This document shows, piece by piece, positions 4,711 to 64,000 of a stretch of DNA of 64,000 nucleotides. Position 1 is the first letter of the stretch, and every line of letters starts with the position of its first letter. The notes beneath the pieces are model-generated. The model was not told the DNA's origin, searched no databases, and saw only the letters and a list, made by a program, of their open reading frames with translations. The position numbers were made by a program, and so were the translations under genes. The DNA is from an uncultured Acidobacteriota bacterium (GTDB lineage Bacteria > Acidobacteriota > Vicinamibacteria > Vicinamibacterales > UBA2999): the NCBI GenBank assembly GCA_963728305.1, contig CAVSKE010000028.1, positions 73,064-137,063 on the forward strand. Direction: 5' to 3'.

Positions 4711-4911
4711 CAGGCGTGGGCGAAGTCACGATTCTAGCACGCGAGATGGAGCTGGCCGGTGCGGCTCTGATTCCGACGGGTCGAGCGACGCGGGAGATTT
4801 TCCTCGCGCCCGCGGGAGATTCCGCGCTCGGCACGCGCGGCGGAACGGATCCGCGATTCCCCGCGCCATTTCGCGTCGTCCGAAGGCACGTGACTTGCCC
4901 TGAGGATCGGC

Positions 4912-5517
4912 ATGGCACACACACTTGCAGAACCATTCCGCTGCGAGGTGCCCGTGCTCTTCGCCAGCTCCGAAGGGCAGACGGCGCTCATCGCGATTCG
5001 CCTCGCCGCGGTGCTTCACGAACACGGTCTCGACAGCGAGGCCATCGATGTCTCGACACCGGAGGCCGAGGCCATCGACTGGAGTCGCGTCCGCGGCGCG
5101 CTGCGTCGGCGCGTCGCTCCACGCGGGCAGGCATCAGAAGTCGGCCGCGCGGTTCGTCCAGGCGCACGCCGGCGAACCTGAACGCGGTGCCGTCGGCGTT
5201 CTTCTCGGTCAGTCTCAGCGCAGCGTCGAAGAACCCGGACGAAGTCGCCGAGGCCGAGCGCATCGCCCGCGCCTTTCCCGGCCGAGCACGGATGGAAGCC
5301 GTCGCTCGTCCTGTCGGTCGCCGGACGACTGGCCTATCGCGAATACAACGTCTTCATCCGTTTCGTGATCAAACGCATCGCGAAGAAGGAAGGCGGGCCG
5401 ACCGACACCAGCCGCGACCACGAGCTCACGAATTGGGAGGAGGTCGAGCATCTGGGTCGCGAGATGGCCGCGGCAATTCAGGGTCGCGCGGCAGTGGCGT
5501 CGAGAAGAAGCGCGTGA
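4912..5517 (+). CDS. flavodoxin-domain protein (HemG-like); frame-disrupted as assembled
   Basis: A continuous protein is recovered only across three frames: VLFASSEGQTALIAIRLA..., then GASLHAGRHQKSAARFV, then AFFSVSLSAASKNPDE, then GWKPSLVLSVAGRLAYREYNVFIRFVIKRIAKKEGGPTD. About 3 indels are needed. Confidence 0.7.
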
Positions 5518-8830: not shown

Positions 8831-9551
8831 ATGTCGGAGCACGTGCGTGAACATCGGAGTCTGCTGGCCGCCGCTGAAAAGCGGCTGCTCGATCAGGATC
8901 GCCGGTCACTTGCCGCCGTCGATCCATTCGGACCACCTGACCGTGCTCGCGCTCGCGGCGATGGCGCTGGCCGGGCTCGGCTTCTGGCTCGCGCGCTGGG
9001 ACAGCAACTGGCTCTGGGTCGTGGTCGGCGCGCTGGCGCGTCAACTGGTTCGGCGACAGCCTCGACGGCACGCTGGCGCGGGTCCGCCGCGTCGAGCGGC
9101 CGCGCTACGGCTTCTACGTCGATCACGTCCTCGACATCGTCGGCATCACGTTCCTGATGACCGGGCTGGCGTGCTCGGGATTCATGACGCCGGTCGATCG
9201 CGCTGTCGCTGCTCGTCGCGTATCTGCTCGTCTCCGGCGAGGTGTTTCTCGCCACCGCCGTGCGCGGCGTGTTCCGGATGTCGTTTGCCGGCGTCGGCCC
9301 GACCGAGCTGCGGATCCTGCTGTCGATCGGCGCTATCGCGCTGCGCGGCGATCCGCACGTCGAGTCTCGGTGCGCTTGGACGCGTGCCGCTGTTCGACGT
9401 CGGCGGGGTCGTGGCGATCGCCGGTCTGCTGGTCGCGCTTGGCTGGGCAATCGTGCAGAACACGGCGCGCTGGCGCGACTCGAGCCGCGGCAGCAGCCCG
9501 ATCGCACGCGGCCCGGCACGAAGCCGACCGTCCTCGTTGCCGAGGTTCTGA
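8831..9551 (+). CDS. CDP-alcohol phosphatidyltransferase family protein; frame-disrupted
   Basis: The motif region [31 protein letters not shown] plus hydrophobic segments can be pieced from three frames. The end is approximate. Confidence 0.7.
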
Positions 9552-9625: not shown

Positions 9626-12561
9626 ATGCCTGACGCAACCAAGCCGCAGAAGGCTCGAAGTCCGCTCGTCGTGCGCGGCGCGCGGACCCACAACCTCAAG
9701 AACATCGACGTCACGCTGCCCTCGGGCAAGCTGATCATCATCACCGGTGTCAGCGGCTCGGGAAAGTCGTCGCTCGCCTTCGACACGATCTACGCCGAAG
9801 GGCAGCGGCGCTACGTCGAGTCGCTCTCCGCGTACGCCCGGCAGTTCCTCGAGCGGATGGAGAAGCCCGACGTCGATCGCATCGAGGGCATCTGTCCCGG
9901 CGATCGCGATCCGGCAGAAGAACAGCGTTCGCAACCCGCGCTCGACGGTCGGCACGACGACCGAGATCCACGACTACATGCGGCTGCTGTTCGCCCGCGT
10001 CGGCCGCACGTTCTGCCGTCAGTGCGGTCAGGAGGTGATTCGCGAGACGGCGGAAGTCGTGGCCAAGCGGCTGGGCGAGCTGCCGACCGGAACGCGGCTG
10101 CTGATGGGGTTCGAGCTGCCGGTCGTGGCGATGGCGGCGCCGAAGGCCGGCGCCGAGGCTGAGAACGGTGACGAGGGAGAGTCGACGAGGAAGAGACTCA
10201 CGACTCCAAACTCAAGCCTCAAGCTCTGCCGCTGACCGATCCGATCACCGAGACGCTCGAAGGCCTGCGCCGTCGCGGCTACGCGCGTCTGCTGATCGAC
10301 GGCCAGGCCGTCGGGTTCGACGAGGTCGATCGCGGCAGCGCTCAAGTCGCGCGCGACGCTCGAGGTCGTCGTCGATCGACTGCGCATCGAAGGCGACCTG
10401 CGCAGCCGGCTCACCGACTCGATCGAGACGTCCTATCGCGAGGGCGGCGGCGCCGCGTTCGCCGTCAACGCCGACACCGGCGAGCGCCTCGAGTTCTCCG
10501 AGCGCTTCGAGTGCCGGACCGTGCGGCATCGCCTACGAGACGCCGCAGCCACGGCTGTTCTCGTTCAACAACCCGTTCGGCGCGTGCCCGATCGTGTCAC
10601 GGCTTCGGCAACATCATCGAGCTCGACATGGAGCTCGTCGTGCCGGATCCGTCGAAGTCGATCAATCAGGGCGCGATCGAGCCGTGGAGCAAGCCGCACT
10701 ACCGGGCGCAGCTCGCCGAGCTGAAGCGCGCGGCGCGCAAGAAGGGCATCCGGCTCGACGTGCCGTGGAGCGACCTGACCGACGAGGAGCGCACGTTCGT
10801 CGTCGAGGGCGACCCTTCGAGGTCGGGACTACGAGGGCATCCGCGGGTTCTTCCGCTGGCTCGAGCGGAAGAAATACAAGGTGCACGTGCGCGTGTTCCT
10901 GAGCCGCTATCGCGGATATCTCGCCTGTCCGGATTGCGGCGGCGCGCGGCTGCGGCGCGAGGCGCGCAACGTCCGCGTCGGCGGACGCACGGTGGACGAG
11001 GTCTCGGCGCTGACCGTCGTCAGCGCGCAGAAGTTCTTCGCCGAGCTGCAGCTGAGTGAGAAGGAGTCGACGGTTGCCGACAAGGTGCTGCGCGAGATCC
11101 GTCGCCGGCTCTCGTTCCTCAGCGACGTCGGTCTCGACTACCTGACGCTCGACCGGCTCTCGTCCACGCTGTCGGGCGGCGAATCGCAGCGGATCAACCT
11201 GGCGACGTCGCTCGGCTCGGCGCTCGTCGGCACGCTGTACGTGCTGGACGAGCCGTCGATCGGCCTGCACGCGCGCGACAACCAGCGGCTCATCGACATC
11301 CTGCAGCAGCTCCGCGACCAGGGCAACACGGTCCTCGTCGTCGAGCACGACGAGGACATGATCCGCGTCGCCGATCACATCGTCGACATCGGACTCGGCG
11401 CCGGCGAGCAGGGCGGTCGCGTCGTGTATTCAGGCGACATGGCCGGTCTGCTGCAGGAGACGCGGTCGCTGACGGCGAAGTACCTGCGCAACGAGCTGGC
11501 GATCCCCGTGCCGTCGCCGCGGCGTCGAGGGACCGGGCAGAAGATCCGGCTCAAGGGCGCGACCGAGCACAACCTGAAGGGCGTGGACATCGAGATCCCG
11601 CTGAACACGATCACCTGCGTGACCGGCGTGAGCGGATCGGGCAAGTCCACGCTGGTGCACGACGTCCTCTATGCGGCGATCAAGCGGGCGAAGGGCGACT
11701 GGGATCGGCGGGTCGGCGCATTCCGCGACCTCGACGGGCTCGAATACATCACCGACGTGTCGCTCGTCGATCAGACGCCGATCGGACGGACGCCGCGGTC
11801 GAACCCGGTCACGTATCTCAAGGCGTTCGATCCGATTCGCGAGCTGTTCTCGCTGACCAAGGACGCCAAGGCGCGCGGGCTGACCGCGAGCCACTTCTCG
11901 TTCAACGTGCCCGGCGGCCGCTGCGAGGCGTGCCAGGGCGAGGGCGAAGTCCGCGTCGAGATGCAGTTCCTCGCCGACGTCTTCGTGCCGTGCGATCAGT
12001 GCGACGGCATGCGCTTCAAGCCGCAGATCCTCGAGGTGCGCTACCGCGGCAAGTCGGTGCACCAGGTGCTCGAGATGACCGTGCGCGAGGCGCTCACGTT
12101 CTTCAGCCAGTCGCCGAAGGTGCTTCGTCGCCTGCAGGTGCTCGACGAGATCGGGCTCGGCTATCTGCGCCTGGGGCAGCCGGCGACGACGCTGTCAGGC
12201 GGGGAAGCGCAGCGCATCAAGATCGCCGCGCACCTGGCGTCGTTCGGCGGCGAGCGCGTGCTCTACATCCTCGACGAGCCGACGACCGGGCTGCACTTCG
12301 ACGACATCGCCAAGCTGCTGGCGGCATTCCGCAAGCTGGTCGAGGCCGGGCACTCGCTGCTCGTCATCGAGCACAACCTCGATGTGATCAAGACGGCCGA
12401 CTACGTGATCGATCTCGGTCCGGAAGGCGGAGAAGCCGGCGGTCGAGTGGTCGCGAGCCGGCACGCCCGAGCAGCTGGCGCAGGTCGACGCGTCGCACAC
12501 CGGGCAGGCGCTCAGGCTCGTGCTGGCCACCGGACGCTCGAACGCGTACGCCGCGCGCTGA
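9626..12561 (+). CDS. uvrA: excinuclease ABC subunit A; frame-disrupted (about 5 indels)
   Basis: [99 protein letters not shown] and [12 protein letters not shown]. The centre (10881-12460) is intact. The last about 100 nt are read in another frame, ending at TGA 12559-12561. Confidence 0.95.
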
Positions 12562-12570
12562 CCTTGCGGG

Positions 12571-15299
12571 CTACTCGTGTCTGAGCGCCTGCGTCGGATC
12601 GAGTCGCGCGGCCCGGCGAGCCGGCACGAACACAGCGAGACCGGCGACGCCGACGAGCGATCGCGGTCGCCGACACCATCGTTGAGATGTCGAAGGGCTG
12701 AACACCGAACAGCTGGTTGCCGAGCAGTCGCGACCCGAAGGCCGCGAGCACCAAGCCCACCGCGGTGCCGATCGGTTACGATCCACAACGTTTGCCCCAT
12801 CACGAGCCGCAGAACGTCCGATCGCTGCGCACCGAGTGCCATGCGCACGCCGATTTCGCTCGTGCGTCGCTTCGCATCGTAGGACACCACGCCGTAGAGC
12901 CCGATACACGCCAGAAGAAGGCCGATCGCTCCAGACGCCGCGGTCAGCGCGGCGAACAGTGCGCGGATCGCGGATGGTCTCGGCGATCTGTTCTTCCTGA
13001 GTGCGCACCCGGATCATCGGCAGGGCGGGATCGATCCTGTGGATCGCGGCGCGAACGCCGGCGGTCAGGGCGAGTGCATCGCCCGCGGTTCGGACTTCGA
13101 CTGTCATCCGTCGTGGCGGGATCTGGGTGTAGGGCATGAAGAAGGTTGCCGGAGCCGGCTCGCTCAGTCTGCGAGTACTTGGCATCGCGCACGACGCCGA
13201 CAACCAGAATGGGGATGTCGCGTTCGCGGCCGTTGACGAACTGAAACCGTCGTCCGATGGGGGAGCCGTCCTCGAACACCTGCCCGCGCCATGGCTTCGT
13301 TGACCACGGCCACGCGCGGAGCTTCGCTGGTGTCGCCTGCCTGGAGGCTCCGGCCGGCCATGAGCGGCATGCCGAGGGTCTCGAAGAAGTTCCAGCGGAC
13401 CGACTGCATGTGGACCTCTCGTGGAGTGCCCGAGCGTTCGGCCTGGACCGTCTCGGTCCACTGGCTGCGCGCGACGACGGGCATTGCCGACAGCGTGACC
13501 GACTGCACACCAGGCACCGCCTCGATCGCACCGACCAGGCGTTCGTACAGATCGCACGACGCCACTGGGTTCGCTGACCGACGAACTGGGATCGATTTGA
13601 AACACCAGCAGGTTGCGCGCATCGAACCCGACGTCGACCTGGCTGTAGTTGTAGAGCGTTCGGACGAACAGTCCGGCGACGACGAGCAGTACCAGGCTGG
13701 CGGCAATCTGCACGCCGATCAGGGTCCGCGCCATCAGGGCGCGCTGTCCCCCTGAGCGTGCGGCTTGCCTTGAGCCAGGGCATCGCACCGACGCGCGTCG
13801 CGCGCAGCGCGTGGCCGACACCAAACACGAGTGCGGTGACGGTGGTGAGTCCGGCGGCGAAGGCCAGCGCGCGGAGATCGATAGCCGTCGCGAGAACGAC
13901 ATCGTCCTCGAACATCCTCGGCAGCGCGTCGTTCGCCCACGAGGCGAGTGCCAGACCGGCAGCCGCGCCCGCCGCCGCCAGCACCAGGCTTTCTGACAAG
14001 CAGCTGTCGAATCAACCTGGCTCGACTGGCGCCGAGCGCGAGCCTCACGGTCATTTCCTGACGCCGGTTCGCGGCTCGCACCAGCAGCAGGCTGGCCACG
14101 TTGACGCACGCAATGAGCAGCACGATTCCCGTGACGGCGAACAGGAATGGTGAGACTGTTTCGCGCCATCGGCGAAGGACCGTCCGGACCCTGACTCCCG
14201 GACATGACACGCATGATCGGCATCCCGCTCCGCCCCGGGTCGCGTGTTTCCGGCGCGCGAGCGCCCCAGCTCGTGACGACGGTCTCGTTGAAGATCGGCT
14301 GGAGCTCGGTGAAGCACCTGCTCCCGGGTGACGCCCGGTTTCAGCCGGCCCATGACCAGGAGCCACCAACTCGCAACCGAGCGTGGTTGACGCGTCGGCG
14401 AGAGTCGATCTGACATCGCGAGAGGCAGGCTCAGATCGACTGTCTCGGTCAATTCCGTGCCGTGAAAGGTTTCCGGCGTGACACCGACGATGGTGAACGT
14501 CGTCCGGTTCACGCGGATCGTCTTGCCGATGATGGCAGTGTCGCCGAGAAACCGACGCTGCCAGTAGCGATGACTGACTACGGCTGCGGGTTCAGCGTCG
14601 GGCCGATCGTCTGATGGTCCGAGGGTTCGGCCCAGCGCAGCTGGGACGCCCAGCCCGTCGAAGTAGGTTCCGCTTACGACTTGCGCCGAGGCAATCTCCG
14701 CGCTGTCATCAGTGGCGACGGTCACCGAGCCGAGCGACGCGAACGCGAATACGTGAGAGAGCGTGGTCGCGTGATCGCGAAAGCGTTCGAAGGTCAGCAT
14801 CGAGAAGGAGGTGCGGCGGCTGGTGCCGCCTGGCCCGGGCCGGCCGCTCCCCGAGTAGCTCGCCACCATGCTGTCGCGCTGCTGCAGAGTGTCGAACGCC
14901 ACCAGGTCCTGGGGATTCTTGACCGGCAGCGTGCCCAGAAACATCGCATCCACGACGCTGAACACGGCGGTGTTGGCGCCGATGCCAATCGCGAGAATGC
15001 CGATCGCGGCGGCCGAGAAGCCGATGTTCTTGATCAGCGCCCGGTGGGCGAAACGCAGGTCGCCGCGGAAATCGTCAATCAGACGCAAGCCCGAGGCTCG
15101 CCCGGCCCTCTTCCTTGTATTTTTCGATCGAGCCGAACTCGATGCGTGCCCGACGGATGGCTTCGGCCCGGGACAGGCCGAGGCGGGACATGAGATCGGT
15201 CGCGCGGGCGTCGATGTGAAACGACAGCTCGTCGGCCATCTGTCGCTCGACGTCGCCGCGACGGAACAGCCTGCGCCAGAAGGAGCGAAGCCTGCGCAT
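12571..15299 (-). CDS. ADOP-family duplicated ABC-transporter permease (MacB/FtsX-like); frame-disrupted
   Basis: Starts [30 protein letters not shown] (ATG at 15299). The protein continues through at least 8 ORF-track pieces and ends [28 protein letters not shown]. Confidence 0.85.
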
Positions 15300-22430: not shown

Positions 22431-22508
22431 TCGCAAAATTCGCAGATTCAAAACTGCAAACGCTGAGTGCGAAGCACCGTTTACATTTTGCCTTTTGCAT
22501 TTTGAATC
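22431..22508. repeat. inverted array of short tandem repeats (GCAAAA-type / TTTTGC-type)
   Basis: The right arm has three exact-period heptamers (ATTTTGC CTTTTGC ATTTTGA, TTTTG at 22486/22493/22500). The left arm has degenerate complements. GATTCAAAACTGCAAA pairs with TTTGCATTTTGAATC. It lies between convergent leuA and mscS. Confidence 0.7.
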
Positions 22509-23600
22509 ACGGGCTTTTCGGTGGCGCCGCCACCTGAATCACTGGCAGCCCCGGCATCCTGATGCCGCGTTCGCGGAAGGTCTTCGCAATCCGCTTCCGC
22601 AGCTCACGTCCGACCGTCCACTGCTTCAGCGGCACGGTCTTGATCCGTCCCTTCAGCGACGAGCTGCGTCGGCTCGAACGCGTCGATGCCGTAGACCTCG
22701 AGCGGCTCGAGGATGTGGATGCGGAACTCCGGGTCGGCGAGCAGCGAGTCGGCGGCGTCCTTCATCGCGTCGGCCACGCGATCGGGATCTTCGTCGTAGG
22801 GCACGCCGACGGTGATCACGTAGTAGGCGAAGTCCTTCGACTTGTTCGCCAGCGTCTTGACCTCGCCGTTCGGGAAGACGTGGACCGTGCCTTCCTCGTC
22901 GCGCAGCACGATCGTTCGCAGGTTGACGGACTCGACCAGCCCGCCCTGTACCGTTGACGACGGCGACGTCGCCGACGCGCACCTGATCCTCGAGAATCAG
23001 GAAGAAGCCGGAGATGACGTCGCGCACCAGCGTCTGCGCGCCGAAGCCGACGGCGAGCCCGACGATGCCGGCGCCGGTCAGCGCCGGCGTGATGTCCACG
23101 CCCAGCTCGCCGGAGCGCGGTGAGTCCGGCGATGAGGACGACGACCGTCGTCAGCGTGTTCTGCAGCAGCGTGCCGATCGTCTGCGCCCGCTTGGTGCGC
23201 TCGATGACGTCGAGGCCGGTGCCCGACGACATCTCGCGCTCGAGCTGACGCGTCGCGGTCGAGCCGATGCGAATGATGATGTAGGCCGCGACGGCGATGA
23301 ACACGATCTGCACGCCGGCACCGAGCAGCCACTCAGTGAACGCCTCAGGGTTGCGCGTGAAGAACGGCCGGTAGCCGGCGAGGCGGCAGCGCGGGAATCG
23401 CGACGATCGCTGCGGTCACGACAAACAGCAGCGCGCGGATGACTGGCAGCGGGCTGTCCACGAGCATGCGCTCGCGCTCGTCGGGAACGAAGCGCGCGCA
23501 GCCAGCGTTCGATGCGCCTGGTGAGGAACGCGGTGACGACGTAGGCGGCGACGAGCGCGAGCGCCAGCGCGAGGCTCAGCTCGGGCCAGTTCGACGGCAT
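22507..23600 (-). CDS. mechanosensitive ion channel (MscS family); frame-disrupted
   Basis: [51 protein letters not shown] and [20 protein letters not shown], pieced from about 4 frames. ATG at 23600. Confidence 0.85.
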
Positions 23601-24799: not shown

Positions 24800-25204
24800 C
24801 TATGTAGTGATGTGGATGCGGCGGCCGCCGCCCTCGGGGGCTTTCGGGCAGGTCACGGTCAGGACGCCGTCGCGCAGATCCGCGGTGATGCGGTCGCCGT
24901 CCACGGGAATCGGCAGGTGGAACGTGCGGCTGAACGCAGCCATGGCCGCGTTCGACGCGGTGGTATTCCTCGCCGGCGCGTTCGCGGCGGACGCCGGCCA
25001 CCGTCAGCCGACCATCGTCGTGCAGCGAGATCGTGAGATCGTCGCGGATCGACGCCGGGCAACTCCGCGATGACCATGTAGGCCGTCGGCGGTTTCGAGC
25101 AGATCGACCGGTGGAGTCCAGCCAGCCGGACCAGGTGCAAACCGGTCCAGGCGCTGCTGGATGGCGAGCAGGTCCCGAATTGGATCCCAGCGCGCAAACG
25201 CCAT
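24800..25204 (-). CDS. Hsp20/alpha-crystallin small heat-shock protein; frame-disrupted
   Basis: [22 protein letters not shown]... and [21 protein letters not shown], with the end [27 protein letters not shown] recovered from other frames. It lies 10 nt upstream of the htrA start, consistent with an operon. Confidence 0.85.
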
Positions 25205-25217
25205 GGGAGAATCGTAC

Positions 25218-25301
25218 TCCAGGACTCAGGATTCAGGAATCAGGAATCAGACTCAGGAATCGGCTCGAATCAGGCCTGATCCTGCGGCCTGATTCCTGAT
25301 C
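25218..25301. repeat. inverted heptamer array (NTCAGGA x about 7 / CCTGATN x 4)
   Basis: CAGGA occurs at 25220, 25227, 25234, 25241, (25248), 25254. The palindromic centre is ATCAGG|CCTGAT at 25274/25275. CCTG occurs at 25275, 25281, 25288, 25295. The array fills the hsp20/efp divergent region. Confidence 0.8.
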
Positions 25302-35525: not shown

Positions 35526-36192
<667 letters not shown>

Positions 36193-36220
<28 letters not shown>

Positions 36221-36283
36221 GTGGCAAAGTAACTTTCGACACCTACTTGTCGACTTTTCGACTCTTCGGCTTTTCCACTTTGG
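36193..36283. repeat. inverted array of 8-9 nt tandem repeats (AAGTGGAA x4 / GRCTYTTC x3 plus TTTTCCACT)
   Basis: GTGG occurs at 36195, 36203, 36212 and 36221. The complementary units are GACTTTTC GACTCTTC GGCTTTTC CACTTTGG at 36252-36283. The array spans the stops of convergent scpB and rluB. Confidence 0.75.
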
Positions 36284-39776: not shown

Positions 39777-40580
39777 CTAGAGAGCGAAGTATCGCCTCGC
39801 TCTTACCTGTTCATCCCAATCGTCTGACGAGGCCGGATCCAGCTCCCAGCGATTCTTATCCCGCTTCGCGATCTTGGCCTCGCCCTTGAGCTCCTCGTTG
39901 TCCTGATACTCGATCGCCCACGGCGCGGCCGATGTCGTCCACGATGTCCTGATCGGGCGTCGGGTTGTCGCCGCCGGGCGCTTCATCGCCGACGCTGTAG
40001 GCCGACTCCCAATCGGCATCGACGTCGCCGCCGGTCAGTGCCGGGCTCGTTTCGGTGTGCTCGGCGTACTTCTCGCGCAGCTCGCGCCGGCCCGATCGCG
40101 CGGCGGACGCCGAGCGATCGAAGTCGAGCGAGGAGGGCGGCGTCTGGACGATATCGTCGTCGCGAATCGTCCGGCGTTCGCGATTGAGTCCGGGCGCGGT
40201 ACGAACCGGCACGCGCTCGGGGCGCGGGGCGGTCTTCTTCGCACGCGCGGCACGGCTTGGCGACTGCTTCGGGCATCACGCGGCGACCGCTTCCGCGGCG
40301 GCCTTCTTGCCAGCGCTCGCGGCCGCGGCCTGCCTGACTTTCCGCGCGCCTTCGCGCGTTTTTCGGGCAGACGCCGTCTTCTTCCTGCTCGCAGTCGTCT
40401 TACGCGCCGCGACTTCGCCGTGCTTCTTTCGGGCGGACGCCGTTTTCTTCTTGGCCGACGCTGCTCTTCTTGCGGGCAGACGCGGTCTTCTTGCCGGCGG
40501 ACCGGTGCGTCGACCTTGCGCCGCGTCGTGGCGGCCTTCCGACGTGCGGCTTTCCGTTTGGCCGCCTTCCGTTTGGCCAT
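39777..40580 (-). CDS. Lys/Ala-rich histone-H1-like N-terminus fused to a conserved acidic C-terminal domain; frame-disrupted
   Basis: MAKRKAAKRKAARRKAA.. with KKTASARK-type repeats. The C-terminal domain is ELREKYAEHTETSPALTGGDVDADWESAYSVGDEAPGGDNPTPDQDIVDDIGRA..IEYQDNEELKGEAKIAKRDKNRWELDPASSDDWDE. At least 4 indels are needed. Confidence 0.55.
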
Positions 40581-42704: not shown

Positions 42705-42752
42705 AGGGTCCGGGATCGGGGATCGACGGGCTCGTCGACGCCTGATCCCCGC
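42705..42752. repeat. short G-rich heptamer repeat hairpin (GGGATCG x2 ... CCTGATCCCC), probable rpsA terminator
   Basis: GGGATCG occurs at 42712 and 42719. The inner palindrome is TCGACG-GGCT-CGTCGA and the outer pairing is GGGGATC/GATCCCC. Confidence 0.5.
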
Positions 42753-47867: not shown

Positions 47868-47920
47868 CCGCTCAACGTCGAGCGGTGGCCGCTCAACGTC
47901 GAGCGGTGGCGCTCAATTGC
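47868..47920. repeat. tandem 21-nt hairpin unit x2.5 (CCGCTCAACGTCGAGCGGTGG)
   Basis: Two identical units lie at 47868-47888 and 47889-47909, with a truncated third. Each contains CCGCTC...GAGCGG. The asd stop codon (47893-47895) lies inside unit 2. Confidence 0.85.
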
Positions 47921-50390: not shown

Positions 50391-52639
50391 ATGCTCAGAC
50401 TGCGACTTTCGGCCGCATTTCTCGTCTGTTTCGCGCTGGTCCAGGTCGGGACTCCGCAGCCGAATGCCGGCACTGCGAACCAGCCGACACGGCGAAGCCG
50501 GCCGCACTGCAGCCAGCCGACGCTGCGAAGCAGCCGCAAGACTGCCCAGCAACCCGACACCAGCGCCGCAGCGTCAGCCAGGTCAGCAGCAGGGCTCAGG
50601 GCCAGGGCGACGCGCAGCAGCCCGTGTTCCGCGCCGGCATCGACTTCGTCCGCGTCGACGTCATCGTCTCCGACAAGAAGGCCCAGCCGGTCACCAACCT
50701 GACGCAGGCCGACTTCGAGGTGCTCGAAGACGGCAAGCCGGTCAAGATCGAACAGTTCAAGCTGATCAAGGTTGACGGCAACGTCGACGCCGGGTGGTCC
50801 TCCGCCAAAGCAGATTCGCAATCGCAACGACGAAGAGCTCGAGGCCGCACGAGACGATGTGCGGATCTTCGTGTTCTTCATGGACGACTATCACGTGCGG
50901 AAGGCGAACTCGATGTCGGTGCGCTCGCCGCTCACCAGGTTCATCCAGCAGCAGCTGCGGCCGACCGACATGATCGGCGATCATGTATCCGCTGATGCCG
51001 GTGTCGGATCTGCTGCTGACGCGCAATCACGAGAACATCGTCAACGCGATCAACACGTTCGAGGGCCGCAAGTTCGACTACACGCCGCGCAACATCGTCG
51101 AGCAGAACTACGCGCGGTATTCGACCGATCAGGTCGAGCGCATCCGCAACGACGTGGTGATGGGCGCGCTGCAGGGCCTGGCGGTTCGACTCGGATCGCT
51201 GCGTGAGGGACGCAAGTCGATCGTCTTCGTGAGCGAGGGCTTCACGGCGATGCTGCCGCCGCAGATGCGGCGCATGGACGCGTCGCAGCCGGCCAATCCG
51301 ATCCAGACGACGGCGGCCGCGGCCGTTCGCAGGACTCGAGCGCGTGAGATCACCAGCGAGTGGTTCGGGCAGATGGACGTCTACTCGCGCCTGCGCGATG
51401 TCTACGACGTCGCCAACCGCAACAACACGGCGGTGTATTCGCTGGATCCGCGCGGGCTCGCGCTGTTCGAGTACGGGATCGACGATATCCCGTTCGGACC
51501 GCCGCCGACGCTTTGCCACCGATCGCCGCGCGCTGCAGATGACGCACGGACACGCTGCGCGTGCTCTCGGAGGAGACCGACGGCCGCGCCATCGTCAACC
51601 GCAACACGCTCGAGGCAGGGACTCGCGGAGATGGTTCGCGACTCGAGCTTCTACTATCTGCTCGGCTACACGTCGACGCAAGACCGGCGCCGACGGCAAG
51701 TTCCATCAGATCACGGTGAAGGTGAAGCGGCGTGACGTGGACGTCCGCGCGCGCAAGGGATTCTGGGCGCTGACCACCGGCCGACGTCGAGAAGATCAGG
51801 AATCCCACTCCGGAAGTGGCCAAGCCGGTGCAGACGGCGCTGGCATCGATTGCCACGTCGGTGCAGGCCGGCAAGTACGTGCGGACGTGGATCGGCACCG
51901 AGCGCGGCGAGAACGGCAAGACGCGCGTGACGCTGATCTGGGAGCCGCTGCCGCAGGTCACCGGCGCGCGACGGCCACAGCCCGGTCGCGTGTCGCTGCT
52001 CGCCGCGACGTCCGCCGGGGAATCTCGTCTTCCGCGGACGCTCGCCTGACGCCGCGCTGGCATCCGCGGCTCCGGCGGCGGCGCCCAACGACACCGGAGC
52101 CGGTGACCGGCGCGCTCTCCGTCCGCGCCGGTGGCGACGGCGCCACAGCGACTGGTGTTCGACGCACCGCCCGGGAAAGATCGAGCTGCGCATGACCGTG
52201 GAGGAGGCTGGCGTCGGCGGCACGCTCGACAGCGAGATTCGCGACATCACGGTGCCGGACTTCACGGCGCCGCAGGTCGCGCTCAGCACACCGCGCGTCT
52301 ATCGCGCACGCACCGCACGGGAGTTCCAGTCGCTGGCTGGCCGACGCGAACGCCATCCCGCAGCCGGGCCGCGAGTTCTCACGCACAGAGCGACTGTTGA
52401 TTCGATTCGATGCGTACGGTCCAGGCACTGAGAAGCCCGACGGTCACTGCCGTGCTGATGAACCGGGCCGGGCAGAAGATGTCCGACGTGCAGATCGCGC
52501 CGGCGGCCGCCGGCGCGATGCATCAGATCGATCTCGGGTCTTGCCTCGTTTCCGTCAGGCGAGTACCTGGTCGAGATCACCGCGAAGAGCGCGAACGGCG
52601 AAGCGAAGGAGCTGGTGCCCGTTCAGGCTCGGTTCGTAA
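50391..52639 (+). CDS. VWA-domain protein of the acidobacterial VWFA-related family (TIGR03436-like); heavily frame-disrupted
   Basis: Signal peptide MLRLRLSAAFLVCFALV. Family-typical FRAGIDFVRVDVIVSDKKAQPVTNLTQADFEVLEDGKPVKIEQF. Also IFVFFMDDYHV, SIVFVSEGF, AVYSLDPRGL and GKFHQITVKVKRRDVDVRARKGFWA. About 9 indels are needed. Confidence 0.8.
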
Positions 52640-58957: not shown

Positions 58958-59018
58958 TGGCCCATAGTAATGGATGTCGTTCGCGGTTCGTGATTCGAGC
59001 AGACGATATAATCCAGCT

Positions 59019-60610
59019 ATGGGAGATCCTCCGCATCGCACACGCGAAACGTCCGGTCGAACGGCTGTATACGCCGGAGAGCGTCGCGTCGATCGACTAC
59101 GCGCGCGACCTCGCCGATCCGGGGCAGTTCCCGTACACGCGCGGCATTCACTCCACCGGCTACCGCGGCAAGCTCTGGACGATGCGGCAGTTTGCCGGGT
59201 TCGGGACGCCGGAAGAGACCAACGAGCGCTACCGTCGGCTGCTCGAGGCGGGCGGCACCGGGCTCAGCGTCGCGTTCGATCTGCCGACGCTGATGGGCCG
59301 CGATCCCGATCACGAGCTCTCGCTCGGCGAAGTCGGGAAGTGCGGCGTCAACGTGACCTCGCTCGCCGACATGGAGGTGCTGTTCGCCGGCATCGACCTC
59401 GGCGCGATCACCACGTCGATGACGATCAACGGTCCGGCGTCGATGATCCTGGCGATGTATCTGGCGCTGGCCGAGCAGCGCGGGCACGGACTGGACGACG
59501 CTGTCGGGCACGATTCAGAACGACATCCTGAAGGAGTTCATCGCCCAGAAGGAGTTCATCTATCCGCCCGGGCCGTCGATGCGGCTGGTCACCGACGTCT
59601 TTGCCTTCTGCACCGAGCACGTGCCGCGGTGGAACACGATTTCGGTGAGCGGCTATCACATCCGCGAAGCCGGTGCGACGGCGGCGCAGGAGCTGGCGTT
59701 CACGCTGCGCGACGGCATCGAGTACGTGCAGTACGGGATCGACGCCGGGCTCGACGTGGACGCGTTCGCGCCGCGGATCTCGTTCTTCTTCAACTCGCAC
59801 AGCGACTTCTTCGAGGAGATCGCCAAGTTCCGCGCCGCGCGCCGCATCTGGGCGCGGGTGATGCGCGATCGCTTCAAGGCGCAGTCGCCGCGATCCTGGC
59901 AGCTCCGGTTTCACGCGCAGACGGCCGGCGTGTCGCTCACCGCCCAGCAGCCATACAACAACGTCGTGCGGACGGCGCTGCAGGCGATGGCGGCGGTGCT
60001 TGGCGGCACGCAGTCGCTGCACACCAACGCGCTCGACGAGGCGCTGGCGCTGCCGACCGAGGAAGCCGCGACGCTGGCGCTGCGGACGCAGCAGATCATC
60101 GCGCACGAAACCGGGCGTGACCGACCTGACCGATCCGCTCGGTGGGTCGTACTTCCTCGAGTCGCTGACCGAGCAGCTCGAGAAAGAGGCGCTGGCCTAC
60201 TTCGACACCATCGATCGCATGGGCGGCATGGTCGCCGCCATCGAGCGCGGCTACCCGCAGCGAGAGATTGCCGAGAGCGCGTACCGCGCGCAGCAGGCCG
60301 TCGAATCGAAGGAACAGGTCATCGTCGGCGTGAACGACTTCGTCGAGATCGGGGGCCGAAGGCGTCGGCACGCTCTACATCGACGAGACGGCCGGCGAGC
60401 GTCAGCTGGCCCGGCTCGAGGCAGTTGCGCGCGCGGCGCGACGCGGCCGAGGTCCGCAGGACGCTGGCGGCGCTGCAGGCGGGCGCCAGGAGCGGGTCGA
60501 ACACGATGCCGCTGCTGCTCGACGCGGCCCGCGCGTATGCGACGGTCGGGGAAATGTGCGACAGCCTGCGCGAGGTCTGGGGCGAGTACGTCGAGACGCC
60601 GATAGTCTGA
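59019..60610 (+). CDS. methylmalonyl-CoA mutase family, large (substrate-binding) subunit; frame-disrupted
   Basis: [71 protein letters not shown] and [17 protein letters not shown]. The start is proposed as ATG(G)GAG = [20 protein letters not shown] after removing one G. Confidence 0.9.
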
Positions 60611-60641
60611 GGCTGTGCGGGTCGTCAGACCGCGGTGAAAA

Positions 60642-61094
60642 ATGCGCCAGAAAATCCGAGTCGTCATCGCCAAGCCCGGGCTCGACGGCCACGACCGCGG
60701 CGCCAAGGTCATCGCCCGCGCGCTGCGGGACGCCGGCATGGAGGTAATCTATACGGGCCTTCGCCAGACACCTGAGCAGATTGTCGGCGCCGCTCTGCAG
60801 GAAGACGCCGACGTGATTGGTCTGTCCATCCTTTCCGGCGCGCACATGCACATCTGCCCTCGGGTGATGGAGCTGTTGCGCGAGAAGGGGCTGACCGATG
60901 TGCTCGTCGTCGTCGGCGGCATCATTCCGGACGCCGACGTGCCGAGGCTGAACGAGGTGGGTGTGCGGGGAATCTTCCAGCCGGGTACGCCGATGCAGGA
61001 GATCGTAGACTTCATCAATCGCCACGCCCGGACGCGCGTGGCAACATCTAGTTCGAAGGGGGACCGTGACGCACAAGCTCCTGCTCGCCGATGA
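60642..61094 (+). CDS. cobalamin-binding subunit of the split acyl-CoA mutase
   Basis: Intact, with [35 protein letters not shown] (DxHxxG B12 motif) and GLSILSGAH. Confidence 0.9.
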
Positions 61095-62101
61095 CAGCGT
61101 GACCATTCAGCGCGTCGTCGAGCTGACGTTCTCGGGCGAGGACGTGCAGGTGATCACCGTCGGGGATGGGGAACAGGCCATCGCGCGCATTCCCGTCGAG
61201 CGGCCCGACATCGTCCTGGCCGACATCGGGATGCCGAAGCGAAGCGGCTACGACGTCGCCGGCGTTCGTGAAGGGACGGCCCGATCTGGCGCACATCCCC
61301 GTGCTGCTGCTGGCCGGTGCCTTCGAGCCCGTCGACGATGCCCGCGCGCAGCAGGTGAAGTGCGACGGCGTGCTGGTGAAGCCGTTCGAGCCGCAGCAGG
61401 TCGTGGCGCGCGTGCGCGAGCTGGTCGAGGGCGTCAAGGAGAGAGGCGCACGTCTCCGATGTTCGCGCCCGAGCCGGCCGCGGCGTCCCGCCGACACCAC
61501 TGCCGTCGCTTCGAGCCGAACGTGTGACCGGCGGCCGAACCGGCGCGGAAAGCCGAGTCGAAACTCGACGACTACTTCCAGGGTCTCGACGCGGCGCTCG
61601 CCGTGCTCGACAACAAGGTCGAGAGCCGCCCGCAGGGACACCCGAGATCGACGACTTCAGGGCCTCAGAGGTGCCGACGCTCGAGAAGCTGCTCGGCTCG
61701 ACGCCGCTGCGCGATGACGGCCGGTCCAGCCGCAGACGTCGTCGTATGCATCGCCCATCGCGCCGTCGATGATCGACGCGATCAGCGGTCATGCCCGCAA
61801 CGCCGAGCCTGCACCGGCGACGCCACCCGGCGATGGCGGCAATGTCATCCTCGACGCCTTCAATGCGCTGCTCGCGATGGAGCAGGGCGAACCGAGACCG
61901 ACGACGCGTGCGACCGCGCCTGCCGCCGCACCCACTGTCGTCACCGACGAGCTCGTGGACGAGGTGACTCGCCGCGTGCTCGAGCGTCTGGCGCCGAACG
62001 CCGCCCGCGATCTGGTCAAGCAGGTCGTCGGCGAGGTCGCCGAACGTCTGATTCGAGAGGAAATCGCGCGCATCAAAGCCGCCGCGAACACGAAGCGCTG
62101 A
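61066..62101 (+). CDS. response regulator (receiver domain) with Pro/Ala-rich linker and conserved helical C-terminal domain; frame-disrupted
   Basis: The GTG start is followed by [16 protein letters not shown]. Also [25 protein letters not shown] and VLVKPF. The C-terminus is [48 protein letters not shown]. It overlaps the preceding gene by 29 nt. Confidence 0.75.
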
Positions 62102-62107
62102 ACGGGC

Positions 62108-62241
62108 ATTGGTGATTGCTGATTTTTGATTGGGGATTGGTTGTTGATTGCTGATTGGTGATTGCTGATTGAAGGCCAATCACCACTCGACAATCGAAGA
62201 TCACCAATTTATTCGATAATCAAAGATCACAAATCGTCAAT
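62108..62241. repeat. 134-nt inverted heptamer array (ATTGNNG x9 / complementary CNNCAAT-type x about 9)
   Basis: The left arm has ATT at 62108, 15, 22, 29, 36, 47, 54, 61 and 68 (period 7, with one 4-nt insertion). The centre is TGATTG-AAGGC-CAATCA. The right arm has CAAT at 62177, 62191, 62205 and 62238 (period 7/14). It ends on the valS ATG. Confidence 0.85.
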
Positions 62242-64000
62242 GGACCGACTGCAGATCAACCTTCCAGAGAAGCCGGCACTAGAAGGCCTCGAGGCGAAGT
62301 GGACCGCGAAATGGGAAGCGGACGGCACCTACCGCTTCGAGCCCGGTGATCGTCCGCGCGATCAGATCTATTCGATCGATACACCGCCGCCGACGGTCAG
62401 CGGGTCGCTCCACGTCGGCCACGTGTTCTCGTACACGCACACCGATGTCGTCGCGCGCTTCCAGCGCATGCGCGGCAAGGCCGTGCTCTATCCGATGGGC
62501 TGGGACGACAACGGCCTGCCGACCGAGCGCCGCGTGCAGAACTACTACGGCGTGCGCTGCGATCCGTCGCTGCCGTACGATCCGGCGTTTCGTTCCGCCG
62601 GACAAGCCCGGCAAGCAGCCGATCTCCGTCTCGCGTCCGAACTTCATCGAGCTGTGCGCGCGGCTGACGGCCGAGGACGAGAAGGCGTTCGAGCACCTGT
62701 GGCGATACGCTCGGTCTCTCGGTGGAGTGGTCGCGCACCTACGCGACGATCGATCGCCGCTCACAGAGGGTGTCGCAGACGGCGTTTCTGCGACTGCTGA
62801 AGAAGGGCGCCGCGTATCAGCTCGAAGCGCCCACGTTGTGGGACGTCGATTTCCGAACCGCGGTCGCTCAGGCCGAGCTCGAGGATCGCGAGCAGCCTGG
62901 CGCCTATCATCGCATTGCGGTTCGCGAAGCCCGGACGGTCGACGTACGTCGAGATCGAGACGACGCGCCCGGAGCTGATCCCTGCGTGCGTCGCGCTCGT
63001 CGCGCATCCTGACGACGAGCGCTACAAGCCGCTGTTCGGCACCGAGGTGCTGACGCCGCTGTTCAACGTGCCCGTGCCGGTGAAGGCGCACAGCCTGGCC
63101 GATCCGGAAAAGGGCAGCGGCATCGCGATGATCTGTACGTTCGGCGATCTCACCGACGTCACGTGGTGGCGTGAGCTGTCGCTGCCGGTGCGGGCGGTCA
63201 TCATGCCAACGGCGCGCTCGCGCCGCTCACGTGGGGCACGCGACGGTTGGGAGTCGCGTGACGCGAGCCGGCGCGCAGACGGCCTACGACCAGCTGGCGA
63301 ACCTGTCAGCGGCAAAGGCCCGCGCGCGCATCGTCGAGCTGCTGCGCGAGTCCGGCGATCATGATTGGCGAACCGCGCCCGATCACGCATCCGGTGAAGT
63401 TCTACGAGAAGGGCGATCGTCCGCTCGAGATCGTCACCAGCCGGCAGTGGTTCATCAAGACGATGGAGTTCCGTGAGGCGCTGCTGGCGCGAGGCAGTGA
63501 GCTGCAGTGGCATCCGGAGTACATGCGCGTCCGTTACGAGAACTGGGTCAACGGCCTGGCCGGCGACTGGTGCGTCAGCCGGCAGCGGTTCTTCGGCGTG
63601 CCGTTCCCGGTGTGGTATCCGGTGCGCGCCGACGGCACCGTGGACTACGAGCGGCGACTGCGTGCCGGATGAGTCGCGCCTGCCGATCGATCCGTCAACG
63701 GACGTGCCCGACGGCTACACCGCGGCAGCAGCGCAATCAGCCCGGCGGCTTCATCGGCGATCCGGACATCATGGACACGTGGGCGACGTCGTCGGTGACG
63801 CCGCAGATCGTCTCGGGGTGGCTCGACGATCCGGAGTTGTTCGCGCGCGTGTTTCCGATGGATCTGCGGCCGCAGGCGCACGACATCATCCGCACGTGGC
63901 TGTTCGACACGGTCCTGCGCGCGCACCTCGAGCACGACTCGCTGCCGTGGCGGCACGCGGCGCTCTCGGGCTGGGTGCTCGATCCGGATCGCAAGAAGAT
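62240..64000 (+). CDS. valS: valine--tRNA ligase (3' end outside window); heavily frame-disrupted
   Basis: IDTPPPTVSGSLHVGHVFSYTHTDVVARFQRMRGKAVLYPMGWDDNGLPTERRVQNYYGV, ICTFGDLTDVTWW, WCVSRQRFFGVPFPVWY and DIMDTWATSS. About 8 indels are needed. Confidence 0.95.

Follow-up and report, generated by a model that had tools for sequence, protein, structure and literature searches.

A heptamer-repeat palindrome at the valS junction of a Vicinamibacterales bacterium: probable local origin and a possible role in translational coupling

Tandem heptanucleotide repeats have been described in several bacterial lineages. In heterocystous cyanobacteria, the short tandemly repeated repetitive (STRR) sequences consist of three defined units, CCCCAGT, TTGGTCA and CAACAGT, which occur in high copy and mostly as direct arrays. 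It has been reported that heptanucleotide repeats are over-represented in prokaryotes (Mrazek et al. 2007, as cited in PMC4679880 and PMC4692102). Xanthomonas genomes each carry 70-75 convergent inverted pairs of GGGAATC heptamers (Rehm et al. 2015, PMC4692102), and the TAACTGA heptamers of marine Beggiatoaceae end 1 nt to a few nt before start codons, where a translational role was proposed (MacGregor 2015, PMC4679880). In this study, we analysed a 64,000-nt stretch of DNA from an uncultured Acidobacteriota bacterium (contig CAVSKE010000028.1), here called the window, in which a palindrome of heptamers lies between a response-regulator-like gene and valS, the gene for valyl-tRNA synthetase (ValRS). 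Coordinates are window positions, and L-numbers denote loci of relatives. An earlier note on this DNA had described nine ATTGNNG heptamers that face mirror-image units and end on the valS ATG; Tandem Repeats Finder (TRF), the inverted arms, the predicted fold and homologues all agree with this description. We propose that the element was born from local sequence and that its helix preserves an ancestral coupling of the two genes, and we give this whole statement a probability of roughly 55%.

The element is an imperfect 136-nt palindrome at 62107-62242, in which roughly nine ATTGNNG heptamers are followed by a short loop and then by the same heptamers in mirror image. The upstream gene's stop codon, TGA at 62099-62101, is followed by six spacer bases before the heptamers begin, and the final three bases of the element are the valS ATG. 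The left arm (62107-62171, plus strand) was delimited by alignment with L082-L084 and by TRF, which reported period 7, 9.6 copies, consensus ATTGCTG and 75% matches at 62108-62171. Its units read ATTGGTG, ATTGCTG, ATTTTTG, ATTGGGG, an irregular 11-nt unit, ATTGCTG, ATTGGTG, ATTGCTG and ATTG. The apical loop AAGGC (62172-62176, plus strand) was taken from minimum free energy (MFE) structures, and the right arm (62177-62242, plus strand), CAATCAC ... ATCGTCAATG, mirrors the left arm in the inverted-repeat pairs I1-I7. A repeat finder placed inverted arms at 62108-62140/62176-62208, 62141-62171/62177-62207 and 62107-62131/62218-62242, which overlap and lie in different registers. The left arm is collinear with the reverse-complemented right arm (66 against 67 nt) and 72% identical to it, and the irregular long unit stands at the mirrored position in both arms, a pattern also found in L081. 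The helix has CATTG at its 5' base, and the right arm ends in the reverse complement, CAATG; the valS start codon within CAATG (62240-62242, plus strand) is base-paired in the predicted structure and is supported by homologues.

We compared this element with the described systems. With its 7-nt units repeated head to tail about nine times, it is a simple sequence repeat (SSR) in the accepted sense (units of 5-11 nt, at least three head to tail), and its two close, convergent, intergenic arrays on opposite strands form an inverted heptamer pair. Xanthomonas likewise has tandem heptamers in intergenic DNA, some in single arrays and others in inverted pairs that can form stem-loops, and there, as here, the single or paired type is kept between related species while the length differs (PMC4692102). 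However, each Xanthomonas genome uses one G-rich unit with G-quadruplex potential, whereas dozens of mostly not G-rich units are found here; the ATTGNNG unit has no G-tracts. The present element is also built from local stop/start context, and one of its arms supplies a new start codon. Like the long SSRs of Mrazek et al. 2007, the repeats favour 7 nt, are lineage-specific and intergenic, and belong to a type ascribed to polymerase slippage; as far as that description is relayed in the two citing papers, it does not extend to Vicinamibacterales, to conversion into palindromes or to tight abutment to stop and start codons. The TAACTGA repeats of Beggiatoaceae differ in having a single unit in 2-6 copies, almost only as direct repeats, with one inverted case (PMC4679880). 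The STRR sequences of Calothrix and Nostoc, which the earlier note took as the closest precedent, are likewise 7-nt units amplified in tandem in non-coding DNA. However, none of the 44 canonical units collected in this study equals an STRR unit, the consensus of the element being ATTGCTG/ATTGGTG, and STRRs belong to the cyanobacterial phylum whereas the nearest genomes here are Vicinamibacterales (Acidobacteriota). The Xanthomonas inverted pairs and the general bacterial heptanucleotide excess are closer. Repetitive extragenic palindromic (REP) sequences, bacterial interspersed mosaic elements and REPINs are also imperfect intergenic palindromes within operons or after genes, and can stabilise upstream mRNA. 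REPs, however, form dispersed families, each with one conserved sequence of 20-40 nt, and are mobilised by RAYT transposases, whereas the present palindrome is made of tandem repeats of local sequence and occurs once in the window.

The same junction was examined in relatives. Three equally close relatives, L082, L083 and L084, whose flanks are 84-89% identical to the window, lack the element; there the stop codon (TGA or TAG) is followed by 4-6 nt and a TTG start that leads straight into the valS coding sequence, and both open reading frames (ORFs) at the L082 junction are intact. Since 16 further relatives have compact or overlapping stop/start junctions, sequence comparison indicates that stop/start coupling upstream of valS is the ancestral state. 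L081 carries the same hairpin with identical unit counts in both arms, 19 substitutions, one indel and flanks diverged by about 13%. The earlier note had raised the possibilities of an assembly artefact and of complete absence from close relatives. By sequence comparison the former is excluded, because L081 is an independent metagenome contig with the same element; the latter fails on the same contig.

The alignment with L082-L084 (...GCATTGG(C/T)...) showed that the array begins with the ancestral valS start context, CATTGGTG, as its first heptamer. L084 reads CATTGGTGAAG, equal to the first heptamer, and the element is placed exactly between GCATTGG and ATCAACCTTCCAGAG. In the ancestor, the response-regulator-like gene and valS would have been joined as a stop codon, 4-6 nt and a TTG start. 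The heptamer holding this TTG (ATTGGTG) would have been amplified to about nine units by 7-nt slippage, and a single inverted copy of the whole array, irregular unit included, would then have been made. CAATG, which mirrors CATTG, would in this way have become the new ATG start of valS, replacing TTG. Local birth by 7-nt slippage and one inverted duplication is well supported, because the first heptamer equals the old start context and the new ATG is its mirror. As judged from the sequences, a single inverted duplication of the finished array fits better than independent growth of two arms, because the arms are collinear and 72% identical and the odd unit is mirrored. These results suggest that the element is, with high probability, a locally born simple-sequence-repeat palindrome.

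Other relatives differ in the state of this junction. GATT-type versions were found upstream of valS in L011, L087 and L094, repeat hairpins with quite different units in L003, L013, L017, L044 and L156, and none in many other genomes. In L091 a long left array faces only two or three mirrored units, L097 has a 57-nt remnant, and L089 has a single array that contains the start codon; from their sequences, these three forms are possible intermediates in palindrome formation. The element measures 57, 87, 160, 183 or more than 250 nt among distant relatives, and tandem 7-nt units are slippage-prone in principle. The junction might for these reasons be a contingency (phase-variation) locus, at which frequent gain or loss of units switches the expression of valS or its neighbour, and the earlier note had listed a copy-number switch among the possible roles. 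However, copy number does not vary between close relatives, as the window and L081 have equal unit counts despite their 19 substitutions and diverged flanks, and length differs only between distant ones. Moreover, degenerate units (75% matches) suppress slippage, and valS is an essential housekeeping gene. We regard a phase switch as highly improbable.

We then carried the question from the locus to the lineage with a census of heptamer arrays. The valS enzyme is of the actinobacterial type, and the same scan that returned its relatives also gave 57 Actinomycetota loci, which served as a natural control set (967 kb). The Vicinamibacterales sample comprised 0.8 Mb, of which 454 kb came from 23 genome loci and the window and 344 kb from metagenome loci; an array was defined by period 7 and at least 3.5 copies. 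There were 52 period-7 arrays in the 454 kb of Vicinamibacterales and 6 in the Actinomycetota control. The density was 11.5 per 100 kb in genome loci, 7.0 in metagenome loci and 0.62 in Actinomycetota, an 11- to 18-fold excess. Against the 76 arrays of the whole 0.8 Mb, five block shuffles gave 0-2, so that the comparison with shuffled sequence proposed in the earlier note came out in favour of the arrays. Period 8 was also raised in the Vicinamibacterales sample, in which periods 6, 9, 12 and 15 showed no enrichment. An adjacent inverted partner was present at 34 of 71 arrays of period 7-8, compared with 2 of 71 control flanks 600 nt away and 0 of 18 Actinomycetota arrays. In the merged larger data set, we found 33 palindromic elements (54-263 nt) and 62 single arrays, so about one third of the elements are inverted pairs; six paired elements lie between convergent genes. 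Gene positions near the elements were called from codon periodicity of the flanks, as a caller based on GC3 was too strict for the frameshifted window. It is well supported that Vicinamibacterales genomes are prone to tandem 7-nt duplication in tiny intergenic spacers and that about one third of these arrays became long hairpins.

The units themselves are diverse, with 44 different canonical units among about 60 arrays. Units with a GATT/AATC core are over-represented (8 of 44), and 14 Vicinamibacterales loci, but no control locus, carry GATT-phased arrays; the window element belongs to this family. An identical heptamer is shared by 13.5% of element pairs from the same genome and by 0.7% of pairs from different genomes, a 19-fold difference. 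The units, which the earlier note called locus-specific, are not strictly so, given this sharing and the recurrence of the GATT-core family across the order. In L017, the unit AAATCCC (= GGGATTT) recurs at four loci within 20 kb (2540-2594, 4884-4954, 13391-13441 and 14252-14289) and is similar to the G-rich repeats GGGGATT and GGGAATC known from Nostoc and Xanthomonas. L007 holds two long 8-nt arrays about 550 nt apart, AAGTGAGG in 11.6 copies (9313-9405) and ACATCCCC in 12.5 copies (9954-10053), which score as partial inverse complements of each other.

A second orthologous junction showed a similar range of states. The genes for the large and the B12-binding subunit of a mutase meet in an overlapping TGATG-type or near-overlapping stop/start in seven genomes, and in ten others arrays or hairpins fill the stop-to-start space. 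Repeats with different units were located at L002:8292-8342, L013:8202-8229, L015:8310-8412, L011:7889-7982, L017:7955-8049, L028:8366-8456, L032:8333-8428 and L047:931-1005. Some units contain the local stop codon, such as TAGGCGG (seven copies) in L002 and TGAAGTC in L013. Over all elements, the distance from a facing stop codon had a median of 0 nt, with 40 of 66 within -7 to +10 nt. Since the junction units differ between genomes, some of them hold the stop codon and the median stop distance is 0 nt, these elements too appear to have been born from local sequence.

A small mobile palindrome (MITE- or REPIN-like) of the GATT-core family, inserted at the valS junction, would explain the presence/absence polymorphism with its sharp boundaries. 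The 19-fold sharing of units within genomes and the 14 GATT-phased loci with none in the controls would also suit it. We nevertheless consider such an insertion very unlikely. No second copy of the element was found within the 64-kb window, and a target-site duplication was not found at the junction. The junction is not that of a clean insertion, because the 9-12 nt bordering the element on its right do not match the empty site either. Ancestral local sequence and the first unit are identical, as in L084, the roughly 60 arrays use 44 canonical units, and units at other junctions incorporate the local stop codon. The earlier note had favoured local generation over an imported, fixed mobile sequence, and the empty junction in L082-L084, the ancestral first unit and the differing units at two orthologous junctions bear it out.

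Folding of the element was examined on both strands. The plus-strand RNA folds at -58.1 kcal/mol, compared with -39.6 +/- 4.0 for shuffled sequences (z -4.6; 0 of 200 shuffles as good), and the minus-strand RNA at -46.4 kcal/mol (z -4.6). In a scan of the window with 140-nt segments and G+C correction, the element and a site at 36181 were the two strongest plus-strand outliers, at about -5 standard deviations. Searches of the element against Rfam 15 gave only sub-threshold matches to plant and animal miRNA precursors (32.6 bits against a gathering score of 53), and a search of the window at gathering scores returned only a tRNA, away from the element. The L081 element refolds at -56.1 kcal/mol, and the window/L081 partners keep -56 and -50 kcal/mol. 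When the 19 differences between them were placed at random, the MFE was -39 +/- 4.7 kcal/mol (p = 0.0025 in one direction and 0.025 in the reverse); the same test on the L087/L094 pair gave p = 0.09 and 0.0075. Covariation on a fixed structure, with two sequences, comprised one compensatory and three one-sided changes. In these models, overall stability is kept through the multi-register repeats and register shifts and not through specific pairs.

Translational coupling is currently described by RNA-unfolding and reinitiation models (reviewed in PMC12548453). In phage f1 genes VII/IX and in the MS2 coat-lysis pair, a start codon is sequestered in a helix that is opened by the upstream ribosome (PMC12548453), and we propose a similar arrangement for valS. 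The likeness would be one of function only, as the f1 and MS2 helices are short and lie partly inside the upstream ORF, whereas a 136-nt untranslated helix bridges stop and start here. The predicted folds of the window element, L081, L087 and L094 each contain one enclosing helix that pairs the AUG; the predicted L091 fold pairs the AUG too, without one helix around the whole element. The first paired base comes 1-4 nt after the stop codon in both the window and L081 (the helix base being 1-6 nt away overall), and in L087, L094 and L091 the stop codon itself is predicted to be inside the basal pairing. Three of the mutase-junction hairpins have a similar predicted geometry. We found no Shine-Dalgarno sequence for valS at the junction and, in a consensus scan of 61800-62500, no sigma-70-like promoter and no intrinsic terminator. 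These findings agree with the earlier note, which had seen no room for a promoter, Shine-Dalgarno sequence or terminator outside the element. In prediction, the start is thus sequestered by a structure adjoining the stop, with no ribosome-binding site of its own, as RNA-unfolding coupling demands.

In our proposal, the response-regulator-like gene and valS would still be read from one transcript, and the RNA would fold into one helix whose base holds the UGA near the first pair and includes the AUG among the last ones. On terminating at the upstream UGA, a ribosome would open the basal pairs and free the valS AUG, so that valS would be translated mainly by way of upstream termination, with neither a Shine-Dalgarno sequence nor a promoter of its own. 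The 138-nt insert would then preserve, and may tighten, the ancestral translational coupling. The element would otherwise be near neutral, which would be why related genomes have, lack or vary it at the same junction. That valS translation stays coupled to upstream termination is, on modelled structures, the likeliest mode of action, to which we give a little less than an even chance.

Several observations weigh against this proposal. We infer the coupling from geometry, and a structure directly 3' of a stop codon was reported to lower coupling efficiency (Chemla et al., as cited in PMC12548453). Unpaired arrays of 45-100 nt at such junctions are tolerated as often as hairpins, and a hairpin is therefore not required for downstream expression. 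On the fixed MFE structure of the window, L081 breaks 9 of 54 pairs, no better than the 8.9 expected at random. The G-U bias between sense and antisense folds was not consistent across 24 paired elements; because of this, the class as a whole gives no proof of RNA-level selection, and the constraint may act on either RNA or DNA. The right arm contains, 20 nt before the valS ATG, a GATAAT hexamer (62215-62220) that is conserved in L081 and could be a weak internal -10 box, although no -35 partner or consensus promoter was found for it. As to the origin, flank phylogeny does not tell gain from loss in L082, because L081 and L082 are the closest pair and yet differ in the element.

Some of these points suit a neutral by-product, in which a lineage-specific bias for slippage and fold-back leaves a hairpin without a role and valS is translated despite it. 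Presence, absence and unit vary freely among close relatives, single arrays are twice as common as hairpins (62 versus 33), the arms have decayed to 72% complementarity, and the strand-specific G-U bias was not seen. However, the real substitutions keep hairpin stability far better than randomly placed ones. In addition, the AUG of an essential gene buried in a helix of -50 to -58 kcal/mol, without a Shine-Dalgarno sequence, needs some initiation route, and therefore the structure cannot be irrelevant to expression. On balance, we find a purely neutral hairpin doubtful.

Near-perfect helices of 50-60 bp are typical substrates of RNase III, and REP hairpins stabilise upstream cistrons. The long helix of the element could act as an RNA 3'-end or processing element, namely a terminator without a U-tract, a REP-like 3' stabiliser of the upstream message or an RNase III site separating the two cistrons, with valS translated from a processed or separate RNA. 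The elements abut stop codons, six of the paired ones lie between convergent genes, and hairpin stability is maintained. In L003, L013, L017, L044, L090, L140 and L156, moreover, the hairpin follows the upstream stop and precedes a leaderless-type valS box (TACNAT + 6 nt + ATG); this is the position of a terminator or insulator. On the other hand, the stem of the window element has 42% G+C and is followed by GACCGACUGCAG with no U-tract, unlike the G+C-rich stem and U-tract of an intrinsic terminator, and the ancestral junction is stop/start-coupled. Cleavage would leave valS without obvious initiation, as the window and L081 have no TACNAT box, promoter consensus or Shine-Dalgarno sequence at this junction. 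Members of the class also fill the space between the two subunit genes of a mutase, where termination would be harmful, and the elements show no preference for gene 3' ends, 66 sides facing 5' ends and 66 facing 3' ends. The terminator, insulator or RNase III interpretation fits the relatives with a TACNAT box and the convergent junctions, and is unlikely here; the bidirectional terminator or insulator of the earlier note is set aside for this locus. TACGAT or TACCAT followed by about 6 nt and ATG was observed upstream of valS in L003, L007, L013, L015, L018, L044, L048 and L158, and upstream of hsp20 in the window (25202-25216, minus strand); judged from sequence, the spacing appears to be that of a -10 box of leaderless mRNA.

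The motif content of the arms offers one more interpretation. ATTGG is present in four of the nine left units and CCAAT twice in the right arm, and roughly one CspB molecule is bound per heptamer (as reviewed in PMC4679880). Together with the over-representation of GATT/AATC-core units (8 of 44), this might point to a platform on which each ATTGG/CCAAT (Y-box core) heptamer binds a cold-shock-domain protein that melts the hairpin with temperature. Most elements of the class, however, have unrelated units, and the motif is not conserved in every unit, so such a platform has very little chance of being the explanation.

The earlier note had reported the same architecture at five other gene boundaries of the window, and two of these are genuine. 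A second heptamer palindrome with TCAGGAA units lies at 25220-25299 between the divergent genes hsp20 (minus strand, ATG 25204-25202) and efp (plus strand), with fold z values of -2.4 and -3.5. It is directly upstream of a TACGAT -10-like box of hsp20 and not over the start codon. The start-codon occlusion suggested earlier for both genes is consequently retained for valS, whose AUG is in the predicted helix, and not for hsp20. A third palindrome, AAGTGGAA, with period 8-9, lies at 36192-36281 (z -3.8 and -4.4), and its arms overlap the 3' coding ends of the convergent genes scpB (plus strand) and an rluB-like pseudouridine synthase gene (minus strand). The repeat lengthens both products with similar Lys/Val/Glu tails, ...ESGKVEKVE in ScpB and ...KVEKPKSRKVDK in the RluB-like protein. 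At 22431-22510, between convergent genes, there is a weak, degenerate member with TTTGCAT-type units that folds no better than shuffles (z -1.1 and -1.6). The other two candidates were rejected as heptamer palindromes: the site at 42705, which has no more than two GGGATCG units, is an ordinary GC-rich hairpin, and 47868, described as a mirrored 3 x 7 repeat, is a 21-nt stem-loop in tandem. The latter, CCGCTCaacgtcGAGCGG in 2.4 copies at 47868-47916 between a TonB-like gene and a convergent gene, is unlike the heptamer palindromes. TRF also reported longer-period repeats at 40423-40571 and 50466-50546 (21 nt x4, 15 nt x3, 17/33 nt x2-4), which are G+C-rich and probably coding. Very large intergenic hairpins of 263-287 nt (-134 to -192 kcal/mol) were seen in relatives at the same or neighbouring junctions (L142:2722-3009, L128:2740-3015 and L011:2875-3137); those of L142 and L128 are G+C-rich and are not simple heptamer arrays.

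The genes flanking the element were identified by homology. The upstream gene (61066-62101, plus strand), frameshifted in the window, encodes a response-regulator receiver domain with a long C-terminal extension. Its intact orthologue, L082:1972-2982 (336 aa), matches Pfam Response_reg at 2.5e-17, and tblastn supported its synteny across relatives. The valS gene (62240-64000, plus strand) runs off the end of the window, and 1-nt indels break its frame. Its N-terminus, MDRLQINLPEKP, aligns with ValRS of relatives, which supports ATG 62240 as the start, and has its best matches in metagenome-assembled genomes (MAGs) of Vicinamibacterales, phylum Acidobacteriota. The gene order of mutase large subunit, B12-binding subunit, response-regulator-like gene and valS is conserved. 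A frameshifted look was noted for valS, the response-regulator gene, the mutase genes and hsp20 (62240-64000 and 59000-62100). The window valS has about one private 1-nt indel per 190 nt, with none in L081-L083, and 10 of the 11 private indels of the window are not multiples of three. These frameshifts are most likely assembly noise and not pseudogenes.

The bacterial heptanucleotide excess, the inverted heptamer pairs of Xanthomonas and the start-abutting heptamers of Beggiatoaceae were already known. New here are the lineage, the diversity of units and the documented birth of the element, with exchange of the start codon, within a junction where stop and start are coupled. No description of such elements in Vicinamibacter, Luteitalea, Acidobacteria or Vicinamibacterales was found in the searchable literature, as the earlier note had expected for Acidobacteria. 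The orthologous before and after states show a large structured RNA or DNA element arising from a few local bases, between translationally coupled genes and without killing the essential valS, whose start codon was replaced meanwhile. A common soil order joins the short list of lineages with a strong heptamer excess, much of it palindromic. Palindromic heptamers matter for the annotation of start codons and intergenic 'RNA motifs' in these MAGs, and for assembly quality control and structured-RNA searches in Acidobacteriota. More speculatively, a lineage-specific process of 7-nt slippage and fold-back copying in Vicinamibacterales might go on building long repeat palindromes at stop/start junctions. 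As bridging helices, these would keep one gene's stop codon close against the next gene's start, could provide new start codons, as in the change from TTG to ATG here, and would let ribosomes re-initiate across 60-260 untranslated nt. We think this broader process improbable; if it is true, bridging helices would give bacteria a counterpart of hairpin-bypassing reinitiation, and operon junctions a new way to evolve. If the coupling proposed at valS is true, these junctions would be a natural test bed for the distances and structures across which bacterial ribosomes re-initiate.

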